Shown piece by piece: positions 45,594 to 61,940 of a stretch of 64,000 nt of DNA; position 1 is the first letter of the stretch, and the number at the start of each line of letters is the position of its first letter. This stretch comes from Candidatus Nanopelagicales bacterium (lineage in GTDB: Bacteria > Actinomycetota > Actinomycetes > S36-B12), in assembly GCA_040266055.1 (NCBI GenBank), contig JBDQFC010000002.1:6219-70218 (forward strand), written 5' to 3'. Below the pieces are notes generated by a model. The model did no database searches. It worked only from the letters and a program-made list of their open reading frames with translations, and was not told where the DNA came from. The translations under genes were made by a program, and so were the position numbers.

Positions 45594-46498
45594 GCCGCGC
45601 CCACCTTCTTCTGGCCGGCCGTCCAGCCGGCTTTGGGTCGTTCGAACCACACGTGGACTTGACCCGTGCCAACCGAGTTCTCGTACTGGCTATAGAGCTC
45701 ACCGGGAGCAATGACGTCGCCTTCCCCGAGAGCTCCCATCATCATCAGGTAATGCGCGAAGCGCGCTTCCGGCTTGTACTGCAGGAAATCCGGCATGGTG
45801 TCGATCACCGACTTGTGGTCGCCCCGGGCGAACCAGTCCAGACGCTGCATATCCGCTTGGTAGGCCTCGGGCGTGAAAATGTGCTTCGGATCGCTGGCTT
45901 CGTGGTCGCGAATCTCCCGAAGTGGCCAGAAGGTGTGCGACAGCGCACCTGAGGCGATCAGGAGCACCTTGCGGTCGGTCTTCTCGATTGCCGCCTTGAC
46001 TGCCCGCCCTGCACGCAGGAAGTCTTCGCTATCACCCGTTTGGCACACGCTGATGGATATCCATCGCTTGTCATCGAGTCCACGACCAAGGAAGTCCCAC
46101 AGGTTGATCGTCGCGTAGAAGATCGGCAGGTACGGGTCGTCGATGGCGGTCATCCACGTTCCGGCGCCGGGCCCCTCTTCTTGGATCGCTTGGGCCAGCT
46201 CCGGATCACCGGGGAAGTCGTATGGGATTCGTGTCATGCCGCGGGGAAGTTCCTCGGACGTGAACAATCCGGCGCGACGATCCTGAGCCGTGACGACAAA
46301 CTCCACGGTGGTGGCCCAATGGGAGTCCATCACGATCACGGTGTCGTAATCCAGGGTTTCGAACTTGTCCTTGCGGAGGTTCCGAAGGCCCGGAACGAGT
46401 GAGATTTCATGACCTTCGTTCAATTCCTTGCGGATGTTCTCCGGCAGCATGATCGTCGGTACGTGTGCCAGGAGCGCCGCTCCTACAACTTCACCCAT
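45590..46498 (-). CDS. LigB-superfamily extradiol dioxygenase, HpaD (3,4-dihydroxyphenylacetate 2,3-dioxygenase)-like
   Basis: MGEVVGAALLAHVPTIML, DTVIVMDSHW, ASGALSH and SVGTGQV parallel E. coli HpaD as recalled. Start at ATG 46498. Confidence 0.75.
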   Translation of the reverse strand: MGEVVGAALLAHVPTIMLPENIRKELNEGHEISLVPGLRNLRKDKFETLDYDTVIVMDSHWATTVEFVVTAQDRRAGLFTSEELPRGMTRIPYDFPGDPELAQAIQEEGPGAGTWMTAIDDPYLPIFYATINLWDFLGRGLDDKRWISISVCQTGDSEDFLRAGRAVKAAIEKTDRKVLLIASGALSHTFWPLREIRDHEASDPKHIFTPEAYQADMQRLDWFARGDHKSVIDTMPDFLQYKPEARFAHYLMMMGALGEGDVIAPGELYSQYENSVGTGQVHVWFERPKAGWTAGQKKVGAA

Positions 46499-46502
46499 AT
46501 CC

Positions 46503-47966: not shown

Positions 47967-48017
47967 GGAAATCCCATCGTTAGGGCCGGTTGACCGTGCC
48001 CGTCGTCCGTGCCAATT

Positions 48018-48035
48018 TCGTTCGGAGCCTAACGA
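48018..48035. promoter_or_regulatory. Dyad TCGTT-N8-AACGA (site 1 of 3), upstream of the aldehyde dehydrogenase gene
   Basis: tTCGTTcggagcctAACGAa, read directly, in the 91-nt intra-operon gap. Confidence 0.45.
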
Positions 48036-48057
48036 ATAGCGGCGGCTCGCGAAAGGG

Positions 48058-49242
48058 CTACCAGCGAACCGGCAGGGCTTCGGGGGCCCGAAATTCCCAG
48101 CCCCGCATCCGAACCTCATCGCCGGGATCCAGGGTGAGCCCCGGGAGTGCCTCGGCCAGGGTTTGCAGGGCGATCCTCTCCTGACCCCGGGCGAAGGCAT
48201 GGCCGGCACAGAAATGCGGCCCTAGGCCAAATGCCGCATTAGGCCGCCGGGTCCGGCGGATGTCGAAGATGCCGGGGTTGGCGAAGAGAGATTCGTCGTG
48301 GCAGGCGCTGGCGACGACGGCCCCCACCGGGGAGCCCGCAGGGATGGTGATGCCTTGGAACTCGACGTCCACCCGCGCCTGACGGGTCTGGGTGCCGATC
48401 GGGGCTACCCAGCGCAATCCTTCGTGCACCGCATCGTCCCAGCGCTCGGGTTCGGCGAGGACCAACTCCCACTGCTCGCGGTCTGCGAGCAGTCCATACA
48501 GGCACGATGCGGCCCCATGGCCCGGTTCTTGCATGCCCCCGAGGATGATCACTTTCAACGACGGCAGGACCTCGTCCACCGTGCGAGGCTCACCGGCGGG
48601 CCGACCGGTCGTCAGCATGTGAGAGATGGTCGAGTCGTCGGGCTCGAGGCGCAAATGCTCCATGTACGGCCTGAGCTCGGTGTCGATGGCTGAGGCGGTG
48701 GCGTCGTTGATCGCTTGTTTTTCTGGATCGCGTTCGAAGTTGATCGCTCCCATCGCCAGCCCGTGGAACCACTCGCGCAACGTGTCAGCCGATAGGTGGC
48801 CGAGCCCCAAGACGGCGCCCAGGCTCAGGACCGAGATGGGCTCGAAGTAGTCGGCCACGAGTTCGGCTCTGCGGTCAGCGCGGTCGAGGATGCGGGCTAG
48901 GTAATCGTCGGCGATGGGTTGGACGAGCGCGTCGATGTACCCCTCGACGGTGCGTGGTCGGTACTTGGTGTCGAGGCTGCGGCGCTTATCGAGATGGTCA
49001 TCGCCGTCTACGGTCAAGATGGTGGGTCCACCGAAGGACAGATCCAACGGGGAGCCGTCCACCACCGCGCTGAACAAGTCCGTTCGGGTTGCGACGAGGT
49101 CCACGGCGTCCGCGGAGGTAGCGAGCCACAGATTCACCGCGGGGACCCACGCGAGCGGTTCCTCGCTTCGGAGGCGGGCGTAGATGGGGTAAGGGTCGGA
49201 CTCGAGGTCCTCGACGGTGATGGATTCGGTGAAGGTGCTCAT
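48058..49242 (-). CDS. Cytochrome P450 (class I)
   Basis: Heme loop FGLGPHFCAGH and ExxR (HEGLRW). Atypical I-helix GGMQEPG. Confidence 0.85.
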   Translation of the reverse strand: MSTFTESITVEDLESDPYPIYARLRSEEPLAWVPAVNLWLATSADAVDLVATRTDLFSAVVDGSPLDLSFGGPTILTVDGDDHLDKRRSLDTKYRPRTVEGYIDALVQPIADDYLARILDRADRRAELVADYFEPISVLSLGAVLGLGHLSADTLREWFHGLAMGAINFERDPEKQAINDATASAIDTELRPYMEHLRLEPDDSTISHMLTTGRPAGEPRTVDEVLPSLKVIILGGMQEPGHGAASCLYGLLADREQWELVLAEPERWDDAVHEGLRWVAPIGTQTRQARVDVEFQGITIPAGSPVGAVVASACHDESLFANPGIFDIRRTRRPNAAFGLGPHFCAGHAFARGQERIALQTLAEALPGLTLDPGDEVRMRGWEFRAPEALPVRW

Positions 49243-49769
49243 GCGCTTCGGGTAGGTGGAACGGAGATCGTCCCCTCCTTCTCGACGGCGCGGATCAACT
49301 CGCGCAGGAATCCGGTTGCCTGCTGCTTGTCCGCGCTGCTGAGGAATCGAGTGACGTTCCGCTCTTCGGTATTGAAGTCGGGAAACAGGCGCTTCATGAG
49401 TCGTCTCCCTGACGGGGTCAAGGAGACGTCCACCAGACGACCATCGGATTTACCGCGGGTTCGCTCGAGCAGTCCTCGGCTTTCGAGCGTAGTGAGGACA
49501 CCGCTGAGCGTTGCTTTTGAGAAGCCGCCCTCTGCTGCGATCTGGCGGGTTTCGATGGGTTCCCAGATCCAGGTGACCCACAAGACCACGAACGCCGTCC
49601 AGGTGAGATCCGCCCGGGCCAGGACGGTGCGCTCGAGGTGATTGCGAACGGCGTTGGCTGCTCGGAACAGATTGGAGGCGACGGCCATGGCCTCGAAATC
49701 CAGGTCCAAGTCCCCGAGGCGAGCCGAGACTGCTGATTCGGTTTCGCTCAGGGTGTGATGTCCGGCCAT
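49239..49769 (-). CDS. MarR-family transcriptional regulator
   Basis: 176 aa with a winged-HTH core. GGAAGGAGG Shine-Dalgarno. ATGA overlap with the P450 gene. Confidence 0.8.
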   Translation of the reverse strand: MAGHHTLSETESAVSARLGDLDLDFEAMAVASNLFRAANAVRNHLERTVLARADLTWTAFVVLWVTWIWEPIETRQIAAEGGFSKATLSGVLTTLESRGLLERTRGKSDGRLVDVSLTPSGRRLMKRLFPDFNTEERNVTRFLSSADKQQATGFLRELIRAVEKEGTISVPPTRSA

Positions 49770-49821
49770 GTGGCCTCCTTCCGGGAGTCACGGTAGTCGA
49801 ATGACCAAAGTCCTTGCATCG

Positions 49822-49858
49822 AATCGTTCTGGCCCGGATAATTTGGGCCCAAACGATT
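49822..49858. promoter_or_regulatory. Imperfect 37-bp palindrome AATCGTTctGGCCC...GGGCCcaAACGATT containing the perfect 12-bp palindrome TTTGGGCCCAAA
   Basis: Read directly in the MarR/P450 divergent region. 12 of 15 arm positions pair. Confidence 0.45.
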
Positions 49859-49879
49859 AGTTTCACTCGGGAGGTCCCC

Positions 49880-51130
49880 TTGTCCACGGCCACGACTGTG
49901 ACCCTCGCCAACCTTGATCTGTTCGCCGACGGCGCCCCGTGGGCGACGTTCGATGAATTTCGCGCCTCGGATCCAGTGTCATGGAATGAGGAAGAAGCAC
50001 CGAACAAGGGTTTCTGGGCAGTAACCCGCTACCACGACATCGTCGAGGTTCTGCGCGACACCGAGACGTTCTCCAGTGAAGTGGGTGCTGTGAACCTCGA
50101 GGAACTCGACCAGAGTCAGATCGAGATTCGCAAGTCGATGCTCGAGCGCGATGGAACCCGACACCGCGCGCTTCGCAAACTGCTGCAGCCGGCATTCACC
50201 CCGAAGGCACTGACTGTCTACGAGTCGTTCTTGCGAGGGGTCACCGCGAACACTCTCGACGTCGCCCTCGCCAAGGAGCGTTTCGACTTCGTGGACGAGG
50301 TTGCCGCTGACTTTCCGATCAGAGTTCTCGCGCGACTATTGGGAGTGCCCGAGGACGACACGAATCAGTTGATCGAGTGGGGCAATCGAATGGTGGGAAA
50401 TACCGACCCCGAGAGTGCAGATGTCCTGGCATCCGATCCGGAGAGTGAGAAGTATCGTGACCTCCCATTCCGTTCTCCGGCGGCCCTCGAAGTGTTCGAA
50501 TACGGATTCGCTCTTGCGAACGAGCGCCGTGGTGGCTCGGGGGACGACCTCGTCTCGAAGTTGGTGAATGGCACTCCCATTGATGGTGTTCCCGTCGATG
50601 ATTGTGATTTCCGCAACTACTTCCTGCTTCTGGTGGTCGCAGGTAACGAGACCACGCGCCACACGATCTCGCACACGATGAATCATCTGATCAATCATCC
50701 AGATCAGATGGCGATCCTTCGCGAGGATCCGAGCAAGATCGAATGGGCTGTTGAGGAATTCCTTCGTTACGCCAGCCCGGTCTATCACTTCCGTCGTACT
50801 GCGACCAAAGACACCGAACTTGGCGGCCGAACCATCAAAACTGGCGACAAAGTTGTCGTGTGGTTCGCCTCGGGCAACCGTGATTTCGACATCTTCGAAG
50901 ACCCCTACCGATTCGATGTTCAGCGCCATCCCAACGAGCACATGTCCTTCGGCCGCGGCGGTCCACACATGTGCCTGGGCAACTCGCTAGCGCGTCTAGA
51001 AATCCGGGTGATGTTCGAGGATCTGCTCTCCCGAGACATCGAAATCGCACACGATGGATCGATCGACTATTTGCGGTCGAACTTCGTACACGGAATCAAG
51101 CGCTTCCCCGTGAAGGTGACCCGCCGCTAG
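49880..51130 (+). CDS. Cytochrome P450 (class I, CYP124/125/142-like)
   Basis: VVAGNETTRH I-helix and FGRGGPHMCLGNSLA heme loop. TTG 49880 lies 5 nt after GGGAGG. Confidence 0.85.
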   Translation: MSTATTVTLANLDLFADGAPWATFDEFRASDPVSWNEEEAPNKGFWAVTRYHDIVEVLRDTETFSSEVGAVNLEELDQSQIEIRKSMLERDGTRHRALRKLLQPAFTPKALTVYESFLRGVTANTLDVALAKERFDFVDEVAADFPIRVLARLLGVPEDDTNQLIEWGNRMVGNTDPESADVLASDPESEKYRDLPFRSPAALEVFEYGFALANERRGGSGDDLVSKLVNGTPIDGVPVDDCDFRNYFLLLVVAGNETTRHTISHTMNHLINHPDQMAILREDPSKIEWAVEEFLRYASPVYHFRRTATKDTELGGRTIKTGDKVVVWFASGNRDFDIFEDPYRFDVQRHPNEHMSFGRGGPHMCLGNSLARLEIRVMFEDLLSRDIEIAHDGSIDYLRSNFVHGIKRFPVKVTRR

Positions 51131-51831
51131 CCAGGCGCAACTCGCTCGAGGAAGGCACCCACCAGCGCGTCGGCCCGTTTACCCGCCGCGCCCTCCTCAG
51201 CACGCGTGTGCGCCATGAGCGCCTCAGGACTCTGGCCATCGCGCTCCACATGTGCGTACCCATCGGTGTCCAGCCACAACTGCAGTTCGTGAGGAGTCAG
51301 TTCCGGATGGAATTGCAGGGCAAGGTTCCTTCGCAAGGTGAACGCTTGTGAAGCGCGGCTCGTCCGAGCTATTTCGTGTGCGTCGGGCGGGAGTTCCCAG
51401 CGGTCGTAGTGAAACTGAAACCACGGACCGGCCGAGACGAGGTCGGGCTCGTCGGTGTGCAACACACTCCAGCCGATCTCGCATGAGGGAGCGGGCCCGA
51501 CGGAACCACCATGGGCACGGGCAAGCAACTGGCCACCGAAGCAGATTCCGAGGACCGGAACACCGCGGCGGTCGGCCTCGCGAAGCCATTCGAGCTCAGG
51601 GACCAGCCAATTGCCGATGGTGGCATCATCCCAGGCACCCCAGGGTGAACCCATCGGGACGAGGACGTCGTACTTGTCAAGAGATGGAAAAGTGAATTCG
51701 ACGTTGGGGGAGTAGTAGTTCTCCCCCGAGACGATCACCATCTCGTCGATTTCGTATCCCCGGCGCGCGAAGGCATCGCCGATTGGCCCAGGGGGGCTGG
51801 TGTGATCGTGCTCGATAAAAAGGGCCTTCAT
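51127..51831 (-). CDS. Class I glutamine amidotransferase-like protein (possible gamma-glutamyl-amide hydrolase)
   Basis: GICFGGQLLA nucleophile elbow and a FHPE histidine region. AGGAG Shine-Dalgarno. Confidence 0.75.
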   Translation of the reverse strand: MKALFIEHDHTSPPGPIGDAFARRGYEIDEMVIVSGENYYSPNVEFTFPSLDKYDVLVPMGSPWGAWDDATIGNWLVPELEWLREADRRGVPVLGICFGGQLLARAHGGSVGPAPSCEIGWSVLHTDEPDLVSAGPWFQFHYDRWELPPDAHEIARTSRASQAFTLRRNLALQFHPELTPHELQLWLDTDGYAHVERDGQSPEALMAHTRAEEGAAGKRADALVGAFLERVAPG

Positions 51832-51872
51832 TTCACTCCTGCGCTCGGTCTGGGCACACTAGTATCCCAAAA

Positions 51873-51890
51873 TCGTTGGGTAGCAAACGA
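51873..51890. promoter_or_regulatory. Dyad TCGTT-N8-AACGA (site 2 of 3), in the GATase / GS-like divergent region
   Basis: aTCGTTgggtagcaAACGAt, read directly. Overlaps a CCCAA-N5-TTGGG dyad. Confidence 0.45.
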
Positions 51891-51911
51891 TCAATGTGAA
51901 TTGGGGAGTCC

Positions 51912-53261
51912 ATGCACCACGGTCTTGCCGAAGTCCGCCAAAGCTTGCAGGACGACGGAATCGACGTTGTCCGACTCATCTACAGCGATGTCTTGGGCAT
52001 TCCGCGCTCAAAAGACCTCCTGGTCTCGCAATTGGAGCGCGCCGGAAGCAACGGCCCGGCCTTCTGTCAAGGCGTCTGGGTCACCAACACCCGCGGTGGA
52101 GTCTTGGATGGGCACGGCAGCATCTCGGATGGGCTCCCCGATCTGGTGACTCGACTCGATCCGTCGACCATCCGCCCGATTCCGTGGGAGCCCGGTGTCG
52201 CCTACGTGGTAGCTGACAGCTTCGAGCCCAGCGGTGAAGACAGCCCGGTAGCCCCACGGTCGGTCCTGCGGTCGGTCCTTGCCGCGTACGGTGATCGAAA
52301 CCTGTCTCCAGTGATCGGTCCGGAATTGGAGTTCTACTTCGCGCACCGCCCGGAGGGCTCCTGGGAGCGCGTTCTCAACAAGACCGGTCGGGTGTACATG
52401 ACCGGCAGCATCGTCGATCATGAGGGCCTGTTCTTGCACATGCTGCGGATGATCGATCAGTTGAACATCGGTGCCTTCGCTGGCAACCACGAGTTCTCAC
52501 CGTCCCAATACGAGATCAACTTGTGGCATTCCGATGCGCTCGATGCCGCAGATCGGACGTTCATTTTCAAGACTGCGGTGAAGGACATCGCACATCGCGC
52601 TGGAGTCAACGCGACGTTCATGGGCAAGCCGTGGAACGACGAAGGGGGCAGTGGTTTCCACGTTCACTTCTCTGTGGTCGACAGTCACGGTGAGAACCAG
52701 ATGCACGATGGCGGAGCCGGACTCAGCGCGACGGCAGAGTCCATGATTGCCGGGATCATCGCGCACGCGGATGCCCTCTCGGCGTTTACAAACCCCTCCA
52801 TCAACGCCTTCAAGCGGCTCGGTCCCGACACGTTGGCTCCGTATCGCTCGAATTGGGGTCTGGACAACCGCAGCACGATGATTCGAATTCCACCTGAGCG
52901 GGGCCATGGAACGCGTCTGGAATTGCGGATCGGGGATGCCGCTGCGAACCCGTACGTGGTTGCAGCCGCAGTCCTTGCGGCTGCTCTCGACGGAATCGAG
53001 AAGGGGCTCACTCCGCCGGCACCGCTTGAGGGTTGGACCTACGAGGATGAATCGGCAGATGTCCTGCCGATGACGCTTGAGGCGGCTCTTGATGCGCTGG
53101 CGGCAGACGAGGTCATGACGAACAAGTTGGGCGATGTCTTCGTTCAAACGTTCGTGACATTGAAACGGGACGAACTCGAGAGATACAACGCGGAAGTCGC
53201 CGACCCGGCTACCCGCGACGTGACCGATTGGGAACTCGAGGAGTACATCGAGGACTACTGA
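51912..53261 (+). CDS. Glutamine-synthetase-family gamma-glutamyl ligase (GS-like 1)
   Basis: PELEFYF, NHEFSPSQYEIN, GSGFHVHFS and NRSTMIRIP GS catalytic-domain motifs. Confidence 0.8.
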   Translation: MHHGLAEVRQSLQDDGIDVVRLIYSDVLGIPRSKDLLVSQLERAGSNGPAFCQGVWVTNTRGGVLDGHGSISDGLPDLVTRLDPSTIRPIPWEPGVAYVVADSFEPSGEDSPVAPRSVLRSVLAAYGDRNLSPVIGPELEFYFAHRPEGSWERVLNKTGRVYMTGSIVDHEGLFLHMLRMIDQLNIGAFAGNHEFSPSQYEINLWHSDALDAADRTFIFKTAVKDIAHRAGVNATFMGKPWNDEGGSGFHVHFSVVDSHGENQMHDGGAGLSATAESMIAGIIAHADALSAFTNPSINAFKRLGPDTLAPYRSNWGLDNRSTMIRIPPERGHGTRLELRIGDAAANPYVVAAAVLAAALDGIEKGLTPPAPLEGWTYEDESADVLPMTLEAALDALAADEVMTNKLGDVFVQTFVTLKRDELERYNAEVADPATRDVTDWELEEYIEDY

Positions 53262-53267
53262 TCGTGA

Positions 53268-54200
53268 CTAGCCGGTCAACTGCTCCACTCGAGTGACGAC
53301 GTCCCTGCAGAATGCCGAGTGGGCTGACCGATCGTCGATGAAGATTGATGGTTTGATGCAGAACGTCCCAACGCCAAACTGCATCTGACGCGGAATCTCC
53401 TCGAGCGCCGGCTCTAGGGGCGCGCACGCGTTGTCACTCGGGAACTCCACCCGGGTTCCTCCGACGAGCTCGAAGTCCTGCGTTGATTTCCCGTGGGGCT
53501 CAAGGGCCGCACTGAGTGAATCCAGATGGTCGTTTTCGATCCGACCAAGCGGGTGGTAGCCGGAGCCATAGGTGGCCAGTCGCCGGACTATGGCGGGGTG
53601 CACGCCCTGACCACCGAACCACAGAGCCGGCCCAGCAGCAGTGGTCGGTTTGGGGTCGACGAACGCATCGGAGAATGAGTAGTGCTCACCCGCATGACTA
53701 GCGGGAGAGTGAGCCCATACCTCACGCCAGATGGCGAGGTGCTCGTCTAGCAGTTGGCCACGCCGGCGGAAATCCACGCCAAGTGCCTGGTATTCATCCT
53801 GGTGCCAACTCACCGTCGGTTGAACGACGAGGCGACCCTCGGATAGCAGATCCAGTGTCGCGAGGTCCTTGGCCAAGGCGAGGGGATGGCGCAACGGCGC
53901 GATGAGCGCAACCGCGCCGATCCGGATGCGATCGGTGGCGGCAGCGATCGCGGCAAGGAGAATCAGGCTCGCGGGCCAGGCCGTTTCGGGATCTTGGTTA
54001 CCAGGCATCGCATAGTCGCGCGGGTTGGCCATCCGACCTTGTGAACCTGCTGACGGGCCCATCACAACGTGGTCGCTCACCATGACCATGTCGAAGCCTG
54101 CGTCCTCGGCCTCCTGAGCCATGCGTACGAGATCTCGAAGATCGCGCGGATCTGTCAACGTCCAATTCTCGGTGAGAACGCTCACCAAGCGCGCGGTCAT
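53268..54200 (-). CDS. Luciferase-like monooxygenase (LLM) class oxidoreductase, probably F420-dependent
   Basis: 310 aa, TIM-barrel LLM pattern (AEDAGFDMVMVSDHV...). The cofactor assignment is inference. Confidence 0.65.
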   Translation of the reverse strand: MTARLVSVLTENWTLTDPRDLRDLVRMAQEAEDAGFDMVMVSDHVVMGPSAGSQGRMANPRDYAMPGNQDPETAWPASLILLAAIAAATDRIRIGAVALIAPLRHPLALAKDLATLDLLSEGRLVVQPTVSWHQDEYQALGVDFRRRGQLLDEHLAIWREVWAHSPASHAGEHYSFSDAFVDPKPTTAAGPALWFGGQGVHPAIVRRLATYGSGYHPLGRIENDHLDSLSAALEPHGKSTQDFELVGGTRVEFPSDNACAPLEPALEEIPRQMQFGVGTFCIKPSIFIDDRSAHSAFCRDVVTRVEQLTG

Positions 54201-54225
54201 GTTGTGTGCCTAGGCGTGGGCCGGG

Positions 54226-55032
54226 TCAGCGGGCCTGTGAGGAGTCGTCAAGCAACGTGCCACCGGCAAACGTCACACCAACCTCGCGGTAGTAGCCGCC
54301 GATCACTTCCCGAACGGGCAGGAGTGATGCGGGCTTATCCCAGGGTGAATCGTGCAACTCGATCTCCGCGTCACCTGCCCACGGCTCGCCGAGATCCGCG
54401 TCCACTCCACCCATCGTGACGATCTGTGACAAAGACATGCCGGCGCCGGTGATCGAAGGCATGAATCGGTGATGGACCATCGGATGCCCATTGACGAATC
54501 CATTCGTGGGACTGGGCTCACGGAGGGTGACCTTCGCCGACGCCAATCGGTGATCGTAGGCCGCGAGGCTTGCCCCGAAGGTTCCCCCCGGAGCCACTCG
54601 CGGACTGGCCTTTCCATGATTGAAGGCTCGAGTCACATAGATGCTGCCCAGCTTCTTTGGATATCCCTGGAACCAGCCGCGTCCGATGGCGAAATCCGTC
54701 GTGACCCAGATGAGTTCGCACCTGCTGTACGTAACGCCCTGGTACTGGCATCTCACGACGAAGAAGGCCTCGAGATATTGCGATCGCGAAGGGTCGAGAA
54801 GTTCGGCCTTTGATGCACTGCACGATTGCCAGTCGGCCCAGATCAAGGCGACGGCACCCGGATCCTCGTCGGCGAGATCGAGATCAGGAGGCAACAGCGC
54901 ACGGACTTTGTCGACGTCGGTCCGATACTCGACCGTCAACAAGGTGCCCGAGTAGTACCACGGCATGTCGGGGACTAGGGCAGATTCGCCTCCGGGGGTG
55001 TAGGGCGGGAGAAAACCTCGGGACTCACTCAT
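54226..55032 (-). CDS. Acetoacetate-decarboxylase-family protein
   Basis: 268 aa. PPYTPGG...MPWYYSGTLLTVEYRTD N-terminus is typical of the ADC fold family. Confidence 0.65.
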   Translation of the reverse strand: MSESRGFLPPYTPGGESALVPDMPWYYSGTLLTVEYRTDVDKVRALLPPDLDLADEDPGAVALIWADWQSCSASKAELLDPSRSQYLEAFFVVRCQYQGVTYSRCELIWVTTDFAIGRGWFQGYPKKLGSIYVTRAFNHGKASPRVAPGGTFGASLAAYDHRLASAKVTLREPSPTNGFVNGHPMVHHRFMPSITGAGMSLSQIVTMGGVDADLGEPWAGDAEIELHDSPWDKPASLLPVREVIGGYYREVGVTFAGGTLLDDSSQAR

Positions 55033-55054
55033 GTTCGGAGAGCGTAGTGGGGGA

Positions 55055-55072
55055 TCGTTTGCTTGCGAACGA
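55055..55072. promoter_or_regulatory. Dyad TCGTT-N8-AACGA (site 3 of 3), in the ADC-like / TetR divergent region
   Basis: aTCGTTtgcttgcgAACGAa, read directly. The inner bases extend the palindrome (TCGTTTGC-TT-GCGAACGA, 7 of 8). Confidence 0.5.
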
Positions 55073-55109
55073 AAACGAAGGACTTACTTAGCTCGCCTAG
55101 GCTTAGTGG

Positions 55110-55763
55110 ATGGGTCGACCGGCACGCCTGTCTCGTGAAGCTATCTGTGATGCGGCCATGGCCCTGTTGGCTGAAAGCGGTTCGGCGGACTTCACGATGC
55201 GGGCCCTCGGTGATCGATTGGGCGTAGATCCCTCAGCCGTCTACCGGCACTTCTCCGATAAGGACGATCTGCTCCTGGAGGTGGGCGACCGATCAATGGA
55301 CCCGGTAACCCGGGGATTTCTGGCATCGCAGGATGCCTACTCGGACATCATCCGGCTTTGCGGTCGCTTGCGCTCGACGCTGATCGAGAGTCCGGTGGTG
55401 TTACCCATTGTCGCGGCCGGCCCCACGCGTAGGGAAAACGAGCTACGGATCACTGAAATCGTGCTCGATGCGCTTAACCGTGCTGGTCTCGACACCGACC
55501 GAGCAGTGATCGCTTATCACGCGATCATCGAATACACGCTGGGGTCTGCCTGGCTGGATGCCCCGCTTGCTGCTGCCAGTTCGGACAGAACCGCCACCTA
55601 CCAGAAGTGGCGCGCTGATTACCGGAATCTCGATCCGCGACGATTCCCCACAACCGTGGCGGCGTCGTCCTCCCTCTATCCGTCCAGTAATGCCGTTTTC
55701 GAGGCCGGGCTGTCGGCGTTACTCACCGGGCTGCTGGCCGAAGTGGCGAGCGAGACGGCTTAG
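55110..55763 (+). CDS. TetR-family transcriptional regulator
   Basis: N-terminal HTH (FTMRALGDRLGVDPSAVYRHFSDKDDLL) and a TetR C-terminal ligand domain. Confidence 0.85.
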   Translation: MGRPARLSREAICDAAMALLAESGSADFTMRALGDRLGVDPSAVYRHFSDKDDLLLEVGDRSMDPVTRGFLASQDAYSDIIRLCGRLRSTLIESPVVLPIVAAGPTRRENELRITEIVLDALNRAGLDTDRAVIAYHAIIEYTLGSAWLDAPLAAASSDRTATYQKWRADYRNLDPRRFPTTVAASSSLYPSSNAVFEAGLSALLTGLLAEVASETA

Positions 55764-57028
55764 TAGACGCGGGAGTATTCGGTCTGTTCCCAATCCGTAA
55801 CGGTCGCATTCCATCGCTCGATCTCCTTGCGCTTGAGTTCGATGTAGACCTCAAGCAGATCTGGATGGAAGAAGGCCTTCAGTGCATCGTCGCGTTCTAG
55901 CGCATCAAGAGCCTCGGTGAGTGAGTGTGGGGTGTGGCGATCGGTATTGGGCGCGGCATCGGCGTCTCCCACCTGAGGATCGGGCAACGGGAGTTCCCGC
56001 TCGACCCCGGACAGCCCGGCCGCCAAAATGGCGGCAGTGAGCAGGTGTGGGTTGGCGGTGCCGTCGGCCATTCGGTGCTCGACACGGGTCCCCGCACCAC
56101 GCTGTCCGGGTACGCGGACCGTCGAAATGCGGTTGTCCCAACCCCAGTTAGCCCAGTAGCCCGACAGCATCCCGGGCGTCAGACGCTTGTAGGAATTGAC
56201 AGTTGGTCCTGCGAATGCCGCGAGCGCCTCATGGTGGTCGATCAAACCGGCGATGAAGTGCTTCATCAGTGGTGAGATGCCATCGGCATCGGATTCGTCG
56301 ATGAACGCGTTCTTCCCACTCTCGTCATTGAGGCTGGTGTTCACATGTAGACCGCTACCGACGGCATCATTGAAGGGACGGGCCATGAAAGTGATGTCGA
56401 TTCCGCGCTCACGTGCGATCTCTCGAGCAAGAATGCGAAACAGGAAGGCTGCATCGGCGGCCTCGAGTGACTCTTGGTAGTGAAGTGAGGCCTCGACTTG
56501 GCTGGGGGTGAACTCGCTGTTGGCTCCTTCGGGATGCAGCTCGCATTCGTGCGCGAGTGCCACGATCTTCTCGAGAGTTCCTGTCGGGTCGGCCCCCGGA
56601 CCGATGCCGTATACGCGGTGGTCCGGCACGGGGAGTTTGGTGAGGGGTGAACGCTGCTCAAGGAGGAAGAACTCCATCTCGAAGCCCGTCACTGGGAAGA
56701 GCCCTCGTGCTCTCCACCTATCCACAACCGACGTTAACGCACGCCGGGAGTCCAGCGGAAGGTCTCGGCCGTCGGCGAAGTGCAGGTGCGCGAGGCCGAT
56801 CTGCCGATCTCGCCAGGGCCGCACCGACGAGGCGTCCAGGCGTGCCTCCATGTCCGGAAAGCCGGCGCTGGTGGAGTAGTTGGCGGTCTCAAGGAATTCG
56901 AGATCGAGCCCCTGGACCATCACGGTGATGGCGTAGTGAGTGGGGTGTTCACGCCGACTACCCGGAACGGTTTTCCCGTGAGCCAGGCCCAGAAGGTCGG
57001 GGAAGACGATGTCGATCTGGTCGCTCAC
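55760..57028 (-). CDS. Glutamine-synthetase-family gamma-glutamyl ligase (GS-like 2)
   Basis: FEMEFFL, NSEFTPSQVEAS, GSGLHVNTS and NRISTVRVP motifs. 3-nt gap to the NicX-like gene. Confidence 0.8.
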   Translation of the reverse strand: MSDQIDIVFPDLLGLAHGKTVPGSRREHPTHYAITVMVQGLDLEFLETANYSTSAGFPDMEARLDASSVRPWRDRQIGLAHLHFADGRDLPLDSRRALTSVVDRWRARGLFPVTGFEMEFFLLEQRSPLTKLPVPDHRVYGIGPGADPTGTLEKIVALAHECELHPEGANSEFTPSQVEASLHYQESLEAADAAFLFRILAREIARERGIDITFMARPFNDAVGSGLHVNTSLNDESGKNAFIDESDADGISPLMKHFIAGLIDHHEALAAFAGPTVNSYKRLTPGMLSGYWANWGWDNRISTVRVPGQRGAGTRVEHRMADGTANPHLLTAAILAAGLSGVERELPLPDPQVGDADAAPNTDRHTPHSLTEALDALERDDALKAFFHPDLLEVYIELKRKEIERWNATVTDWEQTEYSRVY

Positions 57029-57031
57029 GGC

Positions 57032-58090
57032 CTAGATCTTCTCCTCACCCGCAGCGACACCAGTGAGGCGTCCTGCGTCGACGACCTGGTGATCATCGAG
57101 GAAGACGTTGCAGTTGCGCATGGGAATGTCGAAATGGCAGACACTAAATCTCTCGGCGTTCTCGTTGGCCCCGGTGCTGTACATGAAATTACCCTCGAAG
57201 GCACGGGCCTCAGTGCCGTTGAACTGCGAGCGGTCGTACAACTCCAGGTAGTCCCAGCGCGCCGCTGGGTTCATGCCCCAGCCGATGTGCGATGTCGCGT
57301 AGGCATCCTTGTCGAATGCAGACATGTATGACTTCAGCATGTCCGCTTGATAGCCCTTGCCTTCGATCGCCACGACGTAGTCATCCTCGACCATCAACGT
57401 GATCGGATCTTGCACGTAGTGCTTGAACGTGATGTTGATGTCGCCCGGTGCCAAGACGATTTGACCGTTGACGCGATGGCGTGCCGGAAAGGCCAACACG
57501 AGGCCTCCGGGCCAGTGCGCGATCTCCCCAGGCCCACCGATCACACCAGTGGACCCGGCGGTAAAGGCGTCGGCGAGTTCCACCTCGATGTTGGTACCCA
57601 TGTCGCTGGTGGCGCGCATGACCTTCGCTTGCCTCATGAAGTCATGGGACTTTGCCACTCTTTCGGCCATCACCTCGTCGTGGGGCAGTCGCTCGAAGAT
57701 CTCAGGGTGCTCATTGCTGATCATGAAGACGGATGTGCCGGAACCGAGGATGTCGCGAAGTTCGCGCGAGTGCAGAAGTCCTTCAACCGTAACGTCGATA
57801 ACCAGCGGGACGGACGAGACGGCGGCGACTGCGCCCGCCTGTCCCTTGAGTGCCAGAGATGTTCCGGTGGAACGCAGTGCCACCGGTCCGCCGTTGGCTG
57901 GCGTGCGCATAACGACCTCGAAGGGCTTCGCGCCGAGGTACTCGGCAGCGAGTATCGACGTTGCCACGAGTTCTGGGCGGCTGGCACTCTCAGACAAGAT
58001 GACGACTTCATCGCCGGCTTTCATGCCATTGAGCTGGAACTGTTGGGCGAACCGCTTGATCCAGCGCCACTCGGAGTTTGCGGTGTTCAT
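57032..58090 (-). CDS. NicX-like non-heme iron dioxygenase (2,5-dihydroxypyridine 5,6-dioxygenase family, M29-like fold)
   Basis: TSHIGWGMNPAARW, ARAFEGNFMYSTGAN and CHFDIPMRNCNVFLDD match recalled P. putida NicX ISHIGWGLQPRAQW, ARAFYGNFLFSTGPN and CHLDIPLRNCDIYLDD. Confidence 0.7.
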   Translation of the reverse strand: MNTANSEWRWIKRFAQQFQLNGMKAGDEVVILSESASRPELVATSILAAEYLGAKPFEVVMRTPANGGPVALRSTGTSLALKGQAGAVAAVSSVPLVIDVTVEGLLHSRELRDILGSGTSVFMISNEHPEIFERLPHDEVMAERVAKSHDFMRQAKVMRATSDMGTNIEVELADAFTAGSTGVIGGPGEIAHWPGGLVLAFPARHRVNGQIVLAPGDINITFKHYVQDPITLMVEDDYVVAIEGKGYQADMLKSYMSAFDKDAYATSHIGWGMNPAARWDYLELYDRSQFNGTEARAFEGNFMYSTGANENAERFSVCHFDIPMRNCNVFLDDHQVVDAGRLTGVAAGEEKI

Positions 58091-58887
58091 TAGGACTCCT
58101 TCGGATGCGAGGACCAGTGCTCAAGTATGAGTGCGTTGACCTCTTCGGCTACTTCCAGGTTCAACAAGTGTCCTGCACCGGGAATCACGACCACACGCGA
58201 GTTCGGCATGAGGTCGTCGATGGCCTGGGCGTAGGCGACCGGCGTCTCCTCGTCGAATTCGCCGACCAAGATCAACGTGGGCACATCAATTGTCGGGAGT
58301 ATCGATCGAGTGTCATGGCTTGCGATCGTGCTCAGCGAGTCGAGTAAGCCCGCGAGAGGTACGCGTGCCATCGCTTCGACGGCTTCGGGCACGACATGCG
58401 CTCCGTTGGGACCGGCGAGTGAGGATAAAATCGCAGGTGCGGCGGCCGCGGGGCTTCCCATGGCCTCCAGCCCAGAAAGCCGGTTTGCTCGCCATTCATC
58501 TGGGTCGGTCCCGTCGAGGCCGAACTTCGGGCTGGTGCACAAGAGCGTCAAGGTACGTATTCGCGACGGTGCCTGGGCGGTCGCATATTGCGCGATCATC
58601 CCACCGAAACTCATGCCCACAAGATCTACGGGTTCATTCGGGCTCACCGCTTCGATGAAGTCGACGGCGGCATCCGCGTAGGCACCGAAATCGGTGGACG
58701 CAACCGGGGCAGACTCCCCGTAGCCAGGAGCGTCCCACGCCACGCAGCGTCGGTGGTCCGACAGGATCGCGAGTTGGGGCCGCCATGCGGTTCGTCCTCC
58801 ACCGAGCCCGTGCAGGAATATGGCCGTGGAGCCCGTGCCTGCTTCACGCCATGCGATGGGGGCAGCGTCGATGTCCACGGCCTTCAT
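58090..58887 (-). CDS. Alpha/beta-fold hydrolase (NicD-like deformylase candidate)
   Basis: HGLGGG oxyanion region, GMSFGG nucleophile elbow, C-terminal GAGH. Only the last 265 codons of the 550-aa ORF are taken. The stop overlaps the NicX-like start (TAATG). Confidence 0.7.
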   Translation of the reverse strand: MKAVDIDAAPIAWREAGTGSTAIFLHGLGGGRTAWRPQLAILSDHRRCVAWDAPGYGESAPVASTDFGAYADAAVDFIEAVSPNEPVDLVGMSFGGMIAQYATAQAPSRIRTLTLLCTSPKFGLDGTDPDEWRANRLSGLEAMGSPAAAAPAILSSLAGPNGAHVVPEAVEAMARVPLAGLLDSLSTIASHDTRSILPTIDVPTLILVGEFDEETPVAYAQAIDDLMPNSRVVVIPGAGHLLNLEVAEEVNALILEHWSSHPKES

Positions 58888-58908: not shown

Positions 58909-58947
58909 TGTCGCGACTTTGGCAACGGTGTTGACAAAGTCGCGACA
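58909..58947. promoter_or_regulatory. Perfect 13-bp inverted repeat TGTCGCGACTTTG-N13-CAAAGTCGCGACA in the hydrolase / ACAD divergent region
   Basis: Read directly. The right arm overlaps a TTGACA hexamer (58931-58936). Confidence 0.55.
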
Positions 58948-58965: not shown

Positions 58966-60201
58966 ATGACGCCTCCCGTTGCCTCCCATGAAGGTGCCCG
59001 CGCCCACACAGGTGCGGCTCGTCCCATCCGCCTCGACGACCAGTCCCGCGACGATCTGGTTCAGATCGTGCGCGACCTCGGTCCGATGATGCGCGAACGT
59101 GCGGTCGACATCGATCGCAATGCCGTCTTCCCGTTCGAAAACTTCGACGACTTCCGCCGTACGGGGCTCCTGGCCGTGTGCGTCCCGAAGCAGTACGGAG
59201 GACTCGGAGCCAGTTTCGCGGACTACGCACGCGTCTCCGCTGAGATCGGACGCTACTGCGGTTCTACCGCCCTCACCTTCAACATGCACAACGCGACGAT
59301 GCTGTGGGCCGGCGAGGTCAGCGACCTTCTGGATATGACGCCAGAGGAGCGGGAAACCCACGAGCGTCGTCGTGCGGAAATGTTTCGTGGTGTTGTTGAG
59401 GACGGCGAGATTCACTCGCAACCGTTCAGTGAAGGACTCAACCCAGGTGCACTCGCGGGGGTTGCCACGAAGGCTGAGCCGGTCGAGGGTGGCTATCGCG
59501 TCACGGGTCGGAAGATTTTCGCGTCTTTGTCGGGCGCGGCGAATCGCTACAACGTCACGTGTCAGGTACCGGGAGAAGACTTCCTGCGCCTGTTGTCGGT
59601 TCGCTCCGATTCCGATGGCGTCGAGATCGTCGACGATTGGGATCCCCTCGGTATGCGCGGAACGGTCTCCCGGACTCTCCTGCTCAAGGAAGCATTTGTC
59701 CCGTTCGACGACGAGATCATGCCCGGGGGTATGTACGACCAAGCGGCAAATCGCTATCCCTATCTGTTCATGTCTCTCGCACCCAGTTACCTCGGGCTGA
59801 CCAACGGCATACTCGATTTCACCCGTGACTACCTGCGCGGTGAACTTCCCGGAGCGGCTTCGGGAACTGCCCGACGCGACAACCCCATCAAGCAGGTGGG
59901 GTGGGCCGAAATGCAGATCAAGTACGAGCAGAGCCGAGCCATGCTCTATTCGGTTCTGGACGACGCCTACCTCGATCCAGACGAGGACATGATGGTCAGT
60001 GCGTGGTCAGCGGTGAACACCGTGATGGAGAACGCGAATGAGGTCGCTCGCGTAGCGGTCCGGGTTTGTGGCGGTCAGTCGATGCTCAAGCATCTTCCAC
60101 TTGAGCGGATGTATCGAGACTCTCGGCTGGGTGCCTTGATGCTTCCGTGGAGTGGAGAGGTCACGATGGAGCGGATTGGTAAGGCTCGACTCTATGACTG
60201 A
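58966..60201 (+). CDS. Acyl-CoA-dehydrogenase-family flavoprotein (dehydrogenase or ACAD-fold oxygenase)
   Basis: 411 aa with ACAD N/M/C domain pattern (FPFENFDDFRRTGLL...GLGASF...STALTFNMHN...). Confidence 0.7.
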   Translation: MTPPVASHEGARAHTGAARPIRLDDQSRDDLVQIVRDLGPMMRERAVDIDRNAVFPFENFDDFRRTGLLAVCVPKQYGGLGASFADYARVSAEIGRYCGSTALTFNMHNATMLWAGEVSDLLDMTPEERETHERRRAEMFRGVVEDGEIHSQPFSEGLNPGALAGVATKAEPVEGGYRVTGRKIFASLSGAANRYNVTCQVPGEDFLRLLSVRSDSDGVEIVDDWDPLGMRGTVSRTLLLKEAFVPFDDEIMPGGMYDQAANRYPYLFMSLAPSYLGLTNGILDFTRDYLRGELPGAASGTARRDNPIKQVGWAEMQIKYEQSRAMLYSVLDDAYLDPDEDMMVSAWSAVNTVMENANEVARVAVRVCGGQSMLKHLPLERMYRDSRLGALMLPWSGEVTMERIGKARLYD

Positions 60202-61801: not shown

Positions 61802-61940
61802 GCGCTTGTGAAAATCTACACAATCTTAAGTCGTAACGACTTCGGGCAAGTCGCTTGACTGCGTATATCTGATACAGAACAGTGCTTTCGTTCGGTTCGT
61901 GAGGAGGACCGACGAACTATCGGACAACCGTGGAGGAACC

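Follow-up and report, generated by a model that had tools for sequence, protein, structure and literature searches.

A conserved gene module linking a NicX-like dioxygenase to a glutamine synthetase-like ligase points to an undescribed pathway for amine-bearing aromatics

Here, we identify a gene set, conserved as a unit in Actinomycetota and Alphaproteobacteria, in which a NicX-like dioxygenase gene is nearly always accompanied by genes for a glutamine synthetase (GS)-like ligase, a hydrolase, a flavin monooxygenase, a repressor and a transporter. The arrangement suggests that an aromatic compound bearing an amine is handled by a pathway not yet described. With a probability of roughly 40%, we favor a catabolic module under TetR control that acts on an aromatic or hetero-aromatic compound with an amine group, the likeliest substrate being an aminobenzoate such as anthranilate, which would be processed by gamma-glutamylation, hydroxylation, NicX-type cleavage and hydrolysis. 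A sequence-only reading of the same DNA had not recognized the combination as a described pathway, and we found no description of the module in the searchable full-text literature.

Results

The window, i.e., the whole stretch of DNA analyzed, comprises 64,000 nt from Candidatus Nanopelagicales bacterium (GCA_040266055.1, contig JBDQFC010000002.1, positions 6,219-70,218 of the forward strand). The ORF check confirmed all coordinates and strands given by the sequence-only reading, and profile searches (Pfam/NCBIfam) upheld its domain assignments. The motifs GICFGGQ and GMSFGG, the TAATG stop/start overlap of the hydrolase and NicX-like genes at 58088-58092, and the 3-nt gap (GCC) between the NicX-like gene and the GTG start of the second GS-like gene (GS2) are also as it had claimed. 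Its limits for the block, 51127-58887, were too narrow; the true unit is wider and takes in a monooxygenase, an aryl-CoA ligase, a permease and an operator beyond these coordinates. The features are as follows.

57032-58090, minus strand: NicX-family non-heme Fe(II) ring-cleaving dioxygenase, predicted, 352 aa, distinct clade (phmmer, AF2/Foldseek, ligands)
55760-57028, minus strand: GS-like ligase 2 (GS2), 422 aa, "type B", last gene of the hydrolase/NicX-like operon (Gln-synt_C)
58090-58887, minus strand: alpha/beta-fold hydrolase, 265 aa, GMSFGG, translationally coupled to the NicX-like gene (Abhydrolase_1, Abhydrolase_6)
58909-58947, no strand: 39-bp palindrome in the divergent promoter region, probable TetR operator (arms and recurrence)
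58966-60201, plus strand: ACAD-fold protein, probable oxygenase of a two-component flavin monooxygenase (Acyl-CoA_dh domains)
60152-61801, plus strand: aryl-CoA ligase, benzoate-CoA ligase family (TIGR02262, PDB match)
61899-63488, plus strand: APC-family amino acid/amine permease (AA_permease, AA_permease_2)
55110-55763, plus strand: TetR-family repressor (TetR_N, TetR_C_1)
54226-55032, minus strand: accessory, ADC-family (MppR-like) enzyme (ADC domain)
53268-54200, minus strand: accessory, F420-type LLM oxidoreductase (TIGR03619)
51912-53261, plus strand: accessory, GS-like ligase 1 (GS1), 449 aa (Gln-synt_C)
51127-51831, minus strand: accessory, class I GATase-like hydrolase (Cys-His-Glu), divergent from GS1 (GATase, Peptidase_C26)
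49814-51130, plus strand: accessory, cytochrome P450 travelling with GS1 and the GATase (p450 domain)

The unit consists of the TetR gene, the palindromic operator and the genes for the ACAD-fold monooxygenase, the hydrolase, the NicX-like protein, the GS-like ligase and the APC permease, to which either an aryl-CoA ligase or a flavin reductase is added, depending on lineage. Among the 26 usable loci bearing a NicX-like gene, 25, from two phyla, have a GS-like gene within 5 kb of it; the operon link between the two, seen by the sequence-only reading, is very strongly conserved. The ACAD-fold monooxygenase is present in 24/26 loci, the hydrolase in 22/26, and a TetR gene adjoins the module in 18/26; the APC permease lies within or next to the module in 13/26 loci, including rhizobial operons, and in 13 of the 24 loci with the monooxygenase the operon also encodes a PF01613 flavin reductase. 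On plasmids of Ensifer, Aminobacter, Sinorhizobium and Shinella, the seven-gene module forms one operon, and in L055 the seven genes stand alone, flanked by housekeeping genes. At L054, the NicX-like gene keeps its monooxygenase and hydrolase neighbors, yet no GS-like gene lies within 10 kb. Homologs of NicC, NicD, NicE and NicF were found in 0/26 loci.

The palindrome at 58909-58947 has 18-nt arms that are 94% complementary and is the sole site of its sort in the window. The corresponding intergenic region of seven other loci (L010, L014, L026, L004, L001, L005 and L040) also contains its core, GTCAAC-N3-GTTGAC. It is probably the TetR operator.

GS1, the GATase, the ADC enzyme and the LLM oxidoreductase are accessory; L055, L053 and the rhizobial plasmids have self-contained modules that do without them. 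Of the wider block originally proposed, what stands is that these genes, together with the P450, recur with the core in the distant relative L062. There, the ADC gene (ADC domain, E=2e-56; MppR model, 185 bits, under its cut-off) lies inside the core operon (65% identity); it also co-occurs in the window sub-clade. The LLM oxidoreductase (TIGR03619, 176.6, passing the cut-off of 166.9) recurs in L001 and L062 (52% identity). The GATase has the motifs GICFGGQ and FHPE, and a homolog adjoins the core in L004, L005, L064 and L062; L005 and L064 have an ALDH with the permease/GS-like/GATase set. GS1 orthologs lie beside a GATase and P450b in L011, L013-L018, L026, L030, L033 and L062, and P450 orthologs (56-88% identity) adjoin GS1/GATase in related loci.

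Several lines of evidence place the 352-aa protein among the NicX-family dioxygenases. First, phmmer matched it full-length (residues 13-342) to P. putida NicX (PDB 7CN3; E=1.5e-55), and its relatives bear Pfam PF26233 "NicX"; the protein itself had zero matches in our local Pfam and NCBIfam copies. Second, its AF2 model (pLDDT 90) has Foldseek TM scores of 0.87-0.89 to NicX (7CN3/7CUP) versus 0.54-0.59 to the M29 aminopeptidases PepS, AmpS and AmpT. Third, the motifs SHIGWG, STG and CHFDIP, which the sequence-only reading had named for NicX, are all present, and comparison with the NicX structure, a check proposed at the outset, found equivalents of all four iron ligands (H265, S302, H318 and D320) as well as of L104, H105, H189 and R293. 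Together, the TM scores and the kept iron ligands rule out an M29 aminopeptidase. Identity to NicX is ~34%, and the tree places the clade apart from NicX. We assign the protein, from sequence and predicted structure, to a separate clade of the family.

The substrate site is changed and apparently roomier than that of NicX. In NicX, the residues that bind O1 on either flank of the ring nitrogen are E177 and H189, and the walls of the channels include C76 and V175 (PMC7910607). The window protein has S for E177, N for E308, G for C76 and A for V175; across the clade, E177 is replaced by S/T, E308 by N/T/V/Y, C76 by G and V175 by A/G, and no member keeps Glu177 or Glu308. Because both glutamates are replaced throughout the clade, plain 2,5-dihydroxypyridine (2,5-DHP) is an unlikely substrate. 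Source annotations label the protein 2,5-DHP dioxygenase. To our knowledge, 2,5-DHP is the sole cleavage substrate of NicX-family enzymes, and we know of none that cleaves a benzene ring.

GS2 matches Gln-synt_C over profile positions 3-344 of 344 (E=7e-91) and GS1 matches it full-length (E=9e-93); the two are 35% identical. None of the NCBIfam models for GlnA, type III GS and PuuA reaches its cut-off with the GS-like proteins. In GS2, the motifs for metal, ATP and glutamate are intact, whereas the flap Glu is missing. The GS-like protein is, thus, predicted to retain the ligase machinery without being an ordinary glutamine synthetase, as had been anticipated. Across modules, two unrelated GS-like lineages, ~28% identical to each other, fill the ligase role, suggesting that ligase activity itself is required. 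Their position is the slot of nicF in canonical nicD-nicX-nicF clusters. GS2 and the type A ligase score 118-133 bits against the arylamine ligase NpaA1 (8WWU), no closer than to true GS enzymes. Gamma-glutamylation of arylamines has precedents in AtdA1 and NpaA1 (PMC4539516, PMC11335346).

The hydrolase gives its best NCBIfam matches to PcaD-type enol-lactonases, with weak Thioesterase-domain matches also. It had no detectable BLAST similarity to NicD of Azospirillum or Variovorax, and we reject it as a NicD ortholog; of the NicX/NicD-like pair originally perceived, only the NicX part holds. As had been noted for nicF and nicE, the window lacks canonical partners: tblastn with Azospirillum NicF, NicE, NicC and NicD returned nothing at E<=1e-3. 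The ACAD-fold protein, whose NCBIfam matches include SfnB, DszC, HsaA and the HPA hydroxylase oxygenase component, is probably the oxygenase component of a two-component flavin monooxygenase; its best solved relative, 5GJ7/5Z8T, is named in the PDB only as "Acyl-CoA dehydrogenase type 2 domain protein". No flavin reductase gene was found in the window. The aryl-CoA ligase reaches 369.7 bits against TIGR02262 (cut-off 375), has the anthranilate-CoA ligase 4WV3 as its best PDB match (E=5.6e-89), and is confined to the window sub-clade.

Neighboring genes point to anthranilate/aminobenzoate metabolism rather than to pyridine substrates. This arylamine context rests on the 4WV3 match; on L053, where a salicylyl/2-aminobenzoyl-CoA 5-hydroxylase-type fusion adjoins the module with RidA, ECH and ACAD genes and the cluster's own ligase is 58-59% identical to that of the window; on a kynureninase next to the module in L009; and on a gentisate/5-aminosalicylate dioxygenase-like cupin in L057. 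Of the substrates first considered, hydroxy- or aminopyridines or arylamines, the context thus favors the latter and speaks against pyridines.

Discussion

We suggest that the amine is taken in by the APC permease and that the GS-like ligase, with ATP and glutamate, converts it to a gamma-glutamyl amide, whose N-H-C(=O) group would resemble that of 5-hydroxy-2-pyridone. The ACAD-fold monooxygenase with its flavin reductase would then hydroxylate the ring carbon adjoining the N-bearing carbon, and the NicX-like Fe(II) dioxygenase would cut the HO-C=C-N bond, as NicX does at C5-C6, giving a carboxylate and an N-acyl-glutamine (imide). Finally, hydrolysis of the imide by the alpha/beta hydrolase would yield L-glutamine and a muconate-type diacid, so that the cell would assimilate the amine nitrogen with neither free ammonia nor an amidase involved. 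The aryl-CoA ligase, the GS1/GATase/P450 set, the ADC enzyme and the LLM oxidoreductase are add-ons of the window lineage. Both the substrate and the order of the steps are ones we infer, and some observations do not fit. The aryl-CoA ligase of the window operon has no role in this scheme, the GATase-like hydrolases recurring near the core would be superfluous if glutamine is released directly, and the fact that GS2 and the type A ligase are no nearer to NpaA1 than to true GS enzymes, the lack of a GS-like gene near the L054 module, that of a flavin reductase gene in the window, and that of any known NicX-family enzyme with a substrate other than 2,5-DHP or with activity on a benzene ring also argue against it.

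Alternatively, an N-heterocycle might be opened first and the amine captured afterwards, a doubtful scenario. The monooxygenase would generate an enol beside the ring nitrogen, e.g., indoxyl from indole, or a 3-hydroxy-quinolone-type compound; the NicX-like enzyme would cut HO-C=C-NH-aryl to an N-formyl-arylamine, e.g., N-formylanthranilate, which the hydrolase would deformylate; and the freed anthranilate would go to the CoA ligase or to the GS-like ligase, whose gamma-glutamyl product would be oxidized further. This cleavage motif is identical to that of 2,5-DHP, the smaller residues at 76, 175, 177 and 308 would fit a fused benzene ring, the hydrolase occupies the slot of the deformylase NicD, and the ACAD-fold two-component monooxygenases include indole oxygenases. 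Moreover, the CoA ligase is anthranilate-CoA-ligase-like, the L053 neighbor cluster would use up anthraniloyl-CoA, and in L062 the succession of a GS-like gene, a P450, a reductase and a Rieske oxygenase, with a GATase close by, resembles aniline-dioxygenase logic. However, the APC permease and the GS-like ligase would be unexplained in a seven-gene operon without a further oxidizing enzyme, gamma-glutamyl-anthranilate would be a dead end in minimal modules, indole needs no transporter, and close similarity between the monooxygenase and a solved indole oxygenase was not detectable.

An ordinary 2,5-DHP branch of nicotinate, picolinate or hydroxypyridine catabolism is improbable. Here, the monooxygenase would yield 2,5-DHP, the NicX-like enzyme and the hydrolase would produce maleamate and formate, and the GS-like enzyme would merely assimilate released nitrogen or replace NicF. 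Family membership, the kept iron ligands with L104, H105 and H189, the source annotation, a hydrolase-then-NicX order with stop/start overlap as in nicD-nicX, and the carbon-nitrogen hydrolases that adjoin the module in L054 and L057 and could deamidate maleamate all agree with it. Against it stand the loss from the whole clade of Glu308 and of Glu177, which in NicX contacts the pyridone O and N, the low identity and separate position in the tree, the lack of NicC, NicE and NicF homologs and of an orthologous NicD, and GS-like proteins without the flap Glu and below the model cut-offs; we also know of no means by which a GS-family enzyme would process an amide such as maleamate.

For the old pathway from anthranilate via 5-hydroxyanthranilate to gentisate, we know of no assigned genes. 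A free 5-hydroxyanthranilate (gentisate-like) route, in which hydroxylation para to the amine acts on anthranilate or perhaps on its CoA ester, the hydrolase serves as thioesterase, the NicX-like enzyme cuts 5-hydroxyanthranilate, with C-COO- replacing the ring nitrogen of 2,5-DHP, and the released enamine nitrogen is handled by the GS-like enzyme, would suit the anthranilate-CoA-ligase-like gene in the monooxygenase operon, the weak thioesterase matches, the loss of two acidic pocket residues (fitting an anionic substrate) and the hydroxylase-type neighbors in L053, but we consider it least probable, as the CoA ligase is missing from most module-bearing clades, the invariably linked GS-like ligase gets no specific job, and the products need further enzymes that self-contained modules lack. 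A review names the gentisate pathway for anthranilate (PMC4539516).

Several known systems come close to the module. Two-component group D flavin monooxygenases such as SadABC (sulfonamides, 4-aminophenol) and HsaAB likewise pair an ACAD-fold oxygenase with a small PF01613 flavin reductase and act, before the ring is cleaved, on phenols or anilines; in contrast, the window has no reductase gene, and sequence kinship to the module monooxygenase is not close as far as compared. The Puu (putrescine) and Ipu (isopropylamine) systems bring together an APC-type permease, a GS-like ligase and a GATase-like gamma-glutamyl hydrolase, and GS1/GATase/P450b recalls the ligase, P450 and hydrolase arrangement of Ipu; however, they act on aliphatic amines and have no ring-cleaving dioxygenase, and the minimal module has no GATase-like hydrolase. 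AtdA1-A5/TdnQTA1A2B (aniline) and NpaA1-A5 (1-naphthylamine) couple a GS-like ATP-dependent ligase to oxidative attack on the aromatic ring, often with a class I GATase-like hydrolase close by. By contrast, their gamma-glutamyl anilide passes via a Rieske dioxygenase to catechol, while the window has no Rieske enzyme and its ring opener is of the NicX type; GS2 is also no nearer to NpaA1 than to true GS enzymes. From the NicX/NicD/NicF nicotinate branch (P. putida KT2440; Hpo/Nfo/Ami in S16), the module differs in the diverged, ~34% identical dioxygenase with Glu177 and Glu308 replaced, in a hydrolase not orthologous to NicD, in having a GS-like ligase in the slot of NicF and neither NicC nor NicE, in an ACAD-fold two-component hydroxylase instead of a class A flavoprotein, and in its APC permease. 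It shares with that branch the dioxygenase fold with a His/Ser/His/Asp iron site, a hydrolase gene directly upstream with overlapping stop and start and, presumably, a chemistry in which an enol carbon is cut from an N-bearing carbon and the N-acyl bond is then hydrolyzed.

Results

Gene layout of the unit

The domain scans upheld each domain assignment made in the sequence-only reading, and the open reading frames, strands and junctions matched its account, including the TAATG overlap of the hydrolase and NicX-like genes and the 3-nt gap before the second GS-like gene (GS2), both of which are exact.

Features of the unit and its surroundings
43295-44512, minus strand: ferredoxin reductase
44479-44670, minus strand: ferredoxin, 64 aa
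49814-51130, plus strand: cytochrome P450, here P450b
51127-51831, minus strand: class I GATase, with the GICFGGQ nucleophile motif and an HPE motif
51912-53261, plus strand: GS1, full-length Gln-synt_C (Pfam E=9e-93)
53268-54200, minus strand: F420-type LLM oxidoreductase (domain scan)
54226-55032, minus strand: ADC-family, MppR-like protein (domain scan)
55110-55763, plus strand: TetR gene (domain scan)
55760-57028, minus strand: GS2, full-length Gln-synt_C (Pfam E=7e-91, profile positions 3-344 of 344)
57032-58090, minus strand: NicX-like protein, 352 aa
58090-58887, minus strand: alpha/beta hydrolase (domain scan)
58966-60201, plus strand: ACAD-fold protein, probably a monooxygenase
60152-61801, plus strand: aryl-CoA ligase
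61899-63488, plus strand: APC permease

The unit had been drawn too short; it also takes in the genes at 58966-63488 and, at 58909-58947, a palindrome of 39 bp. Placed between the divergently transcribed hydrolase and monooxygenase genes, this near-perfect palindrome, TGTCGCGACTTTGGCAAC-GGT-GTTGACAAAGTCGCGACA, is probably the TetR operator. Its core, GTCAAC-N3-GTTGAC, is kept in the same intergenic region of relatives as far as Kineosporia; conservation is limited to this core, and the full sequence was not found verbatim in other loci.

The 352-aa protein is NicX-type and belongs to a distinct clade

The protein had been proposed to be NicX-type rather than an M29 aminopeptidase, and this view holds. 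First, it matches P. putida NicX (PDB 7CN3) over the whole length (E=1.5e-55). Second, homologues of the protein are annotated with PF26233 "NicX". Third, its AlphaFold2 model (pLDDT 90) superposes on NicX with a TM score of 0.87-0.89, compared to 0.54-0.59 for the M29 aminopeptidases PepS, AmpS and AmpT; with a score to NicX so far above, the protein does not group with the M29 enzymes. Pfam and NCBIfam scans of the protein gave no match, and an exact-protein look-up returned no record; PF26233 is absent from the scanned Pfam-A copy, and relying on Pfam by itself would therefore leave the protein unassigned.

For the family comparison, 183 members were aligned and a neighbour-joining tree was built. 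The four iron ligands (His265, Ser302, His318 and Asp320) do not vary across the window protein and its clade, nor do Leu104, His105, His189 and Arg293. The window protein is ∼34% identical to NicX, and its clade is placed apart from canonical NicX of P. putida, Azospirillum and Variovorax. This sister clade comprises more than 115 clusters at 90% identity and stems from abundant freshwater Actinomycetota and soil rhizobia.

In the NicX structure, Glu177 and His189 bind O1 of 2,5-dihydroxypyridine (2,5-DHP), with Glu177 beside the ring nitrogen, and two channels are lined by Cys76 and Val175 (PMC7910607). Throughout the clade, Ser stands in for Glu177 (Thr in rhizobial members), Gly for Cys76, Ala or Gly for Val175, and Asn, Thr, Val or Tyr for Glu308. 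The hydrogen-bond network around 2,5-DHP, i.e., His105-Glu177-His189 and Glu308, is thus incomplete, with both His residues kept and both Glu residues replaced. Because the four replacements are by smaller or uncharged residues, the alignment suggests that the clade may act on a substrate that is larger than 2,5-DHP or differently substituted.

A core gene set recurs with the NicX-like gene

Sixty-four loci carrying the NicX-like gene were gathered by exact-protein look-ups, a scan of GTDB species genomes (43 loci) and tblastn of plasmids, and the window proteins were mapped onto them. Counts cover the 26 loci that remained after removal of duplicates and that had 5 kb or more on each side.

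Genes found within 5 kb of the NicX-like gene
GS-like gene: 25/26 loci
ACAD-fold gene: 24/26 loci
Alpha/beta hydrolase gene: 22/26 loci
TetR gene: 18/26 loci
PF01613 flavin reductase gene: 13/26 loci
APC permease gene: 13/26 loci
Aryl-CoA ligase gene: 10/26 loci
NicD, NicE or NicF homologue: 0/26 loci

Given this recurring gene set, in which a GS-like gene almost always accompanies the NicX-like gene, the neighbourhood is conserved. At one locus, L055, seven genes (TetR, ACAD-fold, hydrolase, NicX-like, reductase, permease and GS-like) stand alone amid housekeeping genes. The same seven also make up a single operon on replicons of Ensifer adhaerens, Aminobacter aminovorans, Sinorhizobium sp. 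RAC02 and Shinella sp. PSBB067; for the last two, whose records are unannotated, the genes were placed by tblastn. Cultured carriers include these four, A. aminovorans as strain KCTC 2477, and Kineosporia spp.

Several loci deviate in detail. The smallest actinobacterial version, in L007 and L008, consists of the ACAD-fold gene and of NicX-like, GS-like and flavin reductase genes; the reductase is followed at 12902-13378 by a gene for a 158-aa protein that is hydrophobic by eye and had no family match. In Streptosporangium sp. NPDC051022 (L009), the GS-like frame after the NicX-like gene (11035-12408) is split into two overlapping frames with no gene called, which could reflect a frameshift, a pseudogene or a sequencing error, and no ACAD-fold gene lies within 10 kb. 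The rhizobial hydrolases of L056 and L057 (430 aa) have ∼170 extra N-terminal residues that actinobacterial hydrolases do not have. Finally, some metagenome-assembled genome records (L010, L011, L014, L016, L020-L022, L024, L035 and L051) bear the titles "uncultured Rubrivirga sp.", "Rubricoccaceae", "Bifidobacterium breve" or "Bifidobacteriaceae", yet their loci are 75-98% identical to, and syntenic with, those of Nanopelagicales or Actinomycetota metagenome-assembled genomes; the taxonomic labels of these records look wrong.

Accessory genes are lineage-level additions

The GS1, GATase, P450b, ADC-family and LLM genes, four of which had been counted into a single system with the NicX-like gene in the sequence-only reading, accompany the core in the window sub-clade and in L062 and are missing from the minimal modules. 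The NicX-like protein of L062 is only 60% identical to that of the window, and the accompanying proteins are 65% (ADC-family), 56% (P450b), 52% (LLM), 50% (GATase) and 48% (GS1) identical. Recurrence in so distant a locus argues that these genes are lineage-level add-ons and not chance neighbours. Related loci preserve the GS1/GATase/P450b triad.

A second, paralogous GS-like, GATase and P450 triad lies upstream of the permease, on the other side of the core, in L001, L011, L014, L028-L032 and L051. It is ∼30-40% identical to GS1, GATase and P450b; thus, several gamma-glutamyl/P450 amine modules lie side by side in these freshwater Actinomycetota.

Two further blocks were observed. The minus-strand genes at 43295-49769, which also adjoin the core in L004 and L064, encode a MarR protein, a P450, an HpaE-like ALDH, an HpaD-like LigB dioxygenase, an HpaG-like FAH enzyme, the ferredoxin and the ferredoxin reductase; the P450, ALDH, LigB dioxygenase, FAH, ferredoxin and reductase genes span 43295-49242. 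The block looks like a P450-fed meta-cleavage pathway of the homoprotocatechuate type without HpaH and HpaI, and the ADC-family gene at 54226-55032 might supply its missing hydratase/aldolase step. The block at 30646-37412 (amidohydrolase_3, sulfatase, NMT1/SsuA-type binding protein, two permeases and an ABC ATPase) directly adjoins the NicX-like cluster in L001-L003 and lies ∼20 kb away from it in the window.

The predicted ligase and monooxygenase

The GS-like sequences contain the EMEF, NSEF...E, GSGLH, YKRL, DNR and VEHR motifs, which correspond to metal-, ATP- and glutamate-binding motifs of GS structures. GS2 scores far below the NCBIfam cut-offs for GlnA (230 vs 429), type III GS (240 vs 470) and PuuA (233 vs 650), and by inspection it has neither the flap Glu (PGYEAP region) nor the N-terminal FDGSS ammonium-site motif. 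Two GS-like lineages, ∼28% identical to each other, occur in the module: type A in Nocardioides, Actinoplanes, L055, Ensifer and Aminobacter, and type B in the window (GS2), L005, L007, L062, L064 and Kineosporia. Between Nocardioides and Ensifer, the type A ligases are 71% identical, compared to 47% for the NicX-like, 42% for the ACAD-fold and 30% for the hydrolase proteins. That one lineage has been swapped for the other at a kept position argues that the predicted pathway would require a ligase activity.

Fold and family matches of the window ACAD-fold protein fit a group D two-component oxygenase. A PF01613 reductase gene lies within the operon in half of the related loci (13 of 26); no flavin reductase gene was found in the window. 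The best solved relative (5GJ7/5Z8T) carries only the PDB name "Acyl-CoA dehydrogenase type 2 domain protein" and, therefore, gives no clue to the substrate.

Discussion

Four independent contexts bear on the substrate. The window CoA ligase has anthranilate-CoA ligase 4WV3 as its best solved match (E=5.6e-89). It also shares 58-59% identity with its counterpart in a Nocardioides cluster (L053) situated ∼8 kb from the NicX-like gene; that cluster further codes for RidA, an ACAD, an enoyl-CoA hydratase and a fusion protein of the salicylyl/2-aminobenzoyl-CoA 5-hydroxylase type. In Streptosporangium, kynureninase and APC permease genes adjoin the module, and in Aminobacter, genes for a gentisate/5-aminosalicylate dioxygenase-like cupin, an FAH-family hydrolase and a nitrilase-family protein do so. 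Together, these predicted neighbours point to aminobenzoate, above all anthranilate, metabolism; none of the four indicates nicotinate or picolinate, and context favours an aminobenzoate over the pyridine-type substrate considered earlier.

We favour, with a probability of roughly 0.4, a scheme in which an imported arylamine would be gamma-glutamylated and then hydroxylated beside the nitrogen-bearing carbon. The NicX-like enzyme would cleave the resulting HO-C=C-NH-C(=O) motif, the same as in 5-hydroxy-2-pyridone, and the hydrolase would split the imide arising from cleavage, so that the nitrogen would leave as glutamine. This scheme explains the obligatory ligase, the lack of an amidase in minimal modules and the ligase in the place of NicF. 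It has weaknesses: the CoA ligase is left without a function, GATase-like genes are repeatedly found close to the core, GS2 shows no particular resemblance to arylamine ligases, and a benzene-ring substrate is, to our knowledge, unprecedented in the NicX family.

More tentatively, the gamma-glutamyl anilide of anthranilate or another aminobenzoate, once ortho-hydroxylated, would mimic 5-hydroxy-2-pyridone; the NicX-family enzyme would open the benzene ring between the hydroxylated and nitrogen-bearing carbons, and the hydrolase would split the imide to a muconate-type diacid and L-glutamine. If true, this would be a new logic of aromatic ring cleavage, provide the first non-pyridine substrate of the family and bring amine nitrogen into glutamine without free ammonia.

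Several alternatives were weighed. A route in which a heterocycle would be opened to yield anthranilate is less likely than the favoured scheme. The ordinary 2,5-DHP route, with conversion to N-formylmaleamate as by 2,5-dihydroxypyridine 5,6-dioxygenases (EC 1.13.11.9), is unlikely, both Glu residues of the 2,5-DHP network being replaced in the clade. All characterised NicX-family dioxygenases that we know of act on this one substrate. A route via free 5-hydroxyanthranilate, which would leave the GS-like ligase no specific task, is still less probable. Lactam schemes, in which the GS-like protein would cyclise 5-aminolevulinate or 5-aminovalerate to a pyridone precursor, were dropped because the presence of a flavin reductase identifies the ACAD-fold protein as an oxygenase and because such a scheme would leave too many steps unfilled; pyridoxamine, mimosine and kynurenate routes were dropped for lack of contextual support.

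In all, a large NicX sister clade keeps company with a putative gamma-glutamyl ligase and a probable two-component monooxygenase and not with nic genes. Solving the module, which the cultured carriers make directly testable, would define a second specificity of this unusual iron enzyme family and a new branch of gamma-glutamylation-dependent amine catabolism, and long-known routes for breaking down anthranilate or indole that have no genes assigned might gain them. The automatic labels "peptidase M29", "leucyl aminopeptidase", "2,5-DHP dioxygenase" and "glutamine synthetase" carried by thousands of genomes would be corrected as well.

Compared with known systems, the module differs from canonical clusters of Azospirillum and Variovorax, in which the order is nicD-nicX-nicF, by having the GS-like gene in the nicF position. 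The reported absence of nicF and nicE from the window was confirmed by tblastn with Azospirillum NicD, NicF, NicE and NicC, which gave no match in the window or in the 26 related loci. The hydrolase had been paired with the NicX-like protein as a NicD counterpart; it has no BLAST similarity to NicD of Azospirillum or Variovorax, and this equivalence is withdrawn. An aniline-dioxygenase type (AtdA1-A5), which combines GS-like and GATase-like genes with a two-subunit Rieske oxygenase and a reductase, finds no counterpart either, in that the VanA-type Rieske oxygenase, carried only by L062, has no homologue in the window. By contrast, the parts of Ipu/Pip-type pathways, i.e., a GS-like ligase, a GATase-like hydrolase and a P450 together with its ferredoxin and reductase, are all predicted in the window neighbourhood, and GS1, GATase and P450 resemble the Ipu-type gamma-glutamyl-amine P450 systems. 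Neither the arrangement nor gamma-glutamyl aminobenzoates were found described in the literature searched, most subscription journals lying outside the search. Altogether, all parts of the module belong to known families, and their combination appears to be new.
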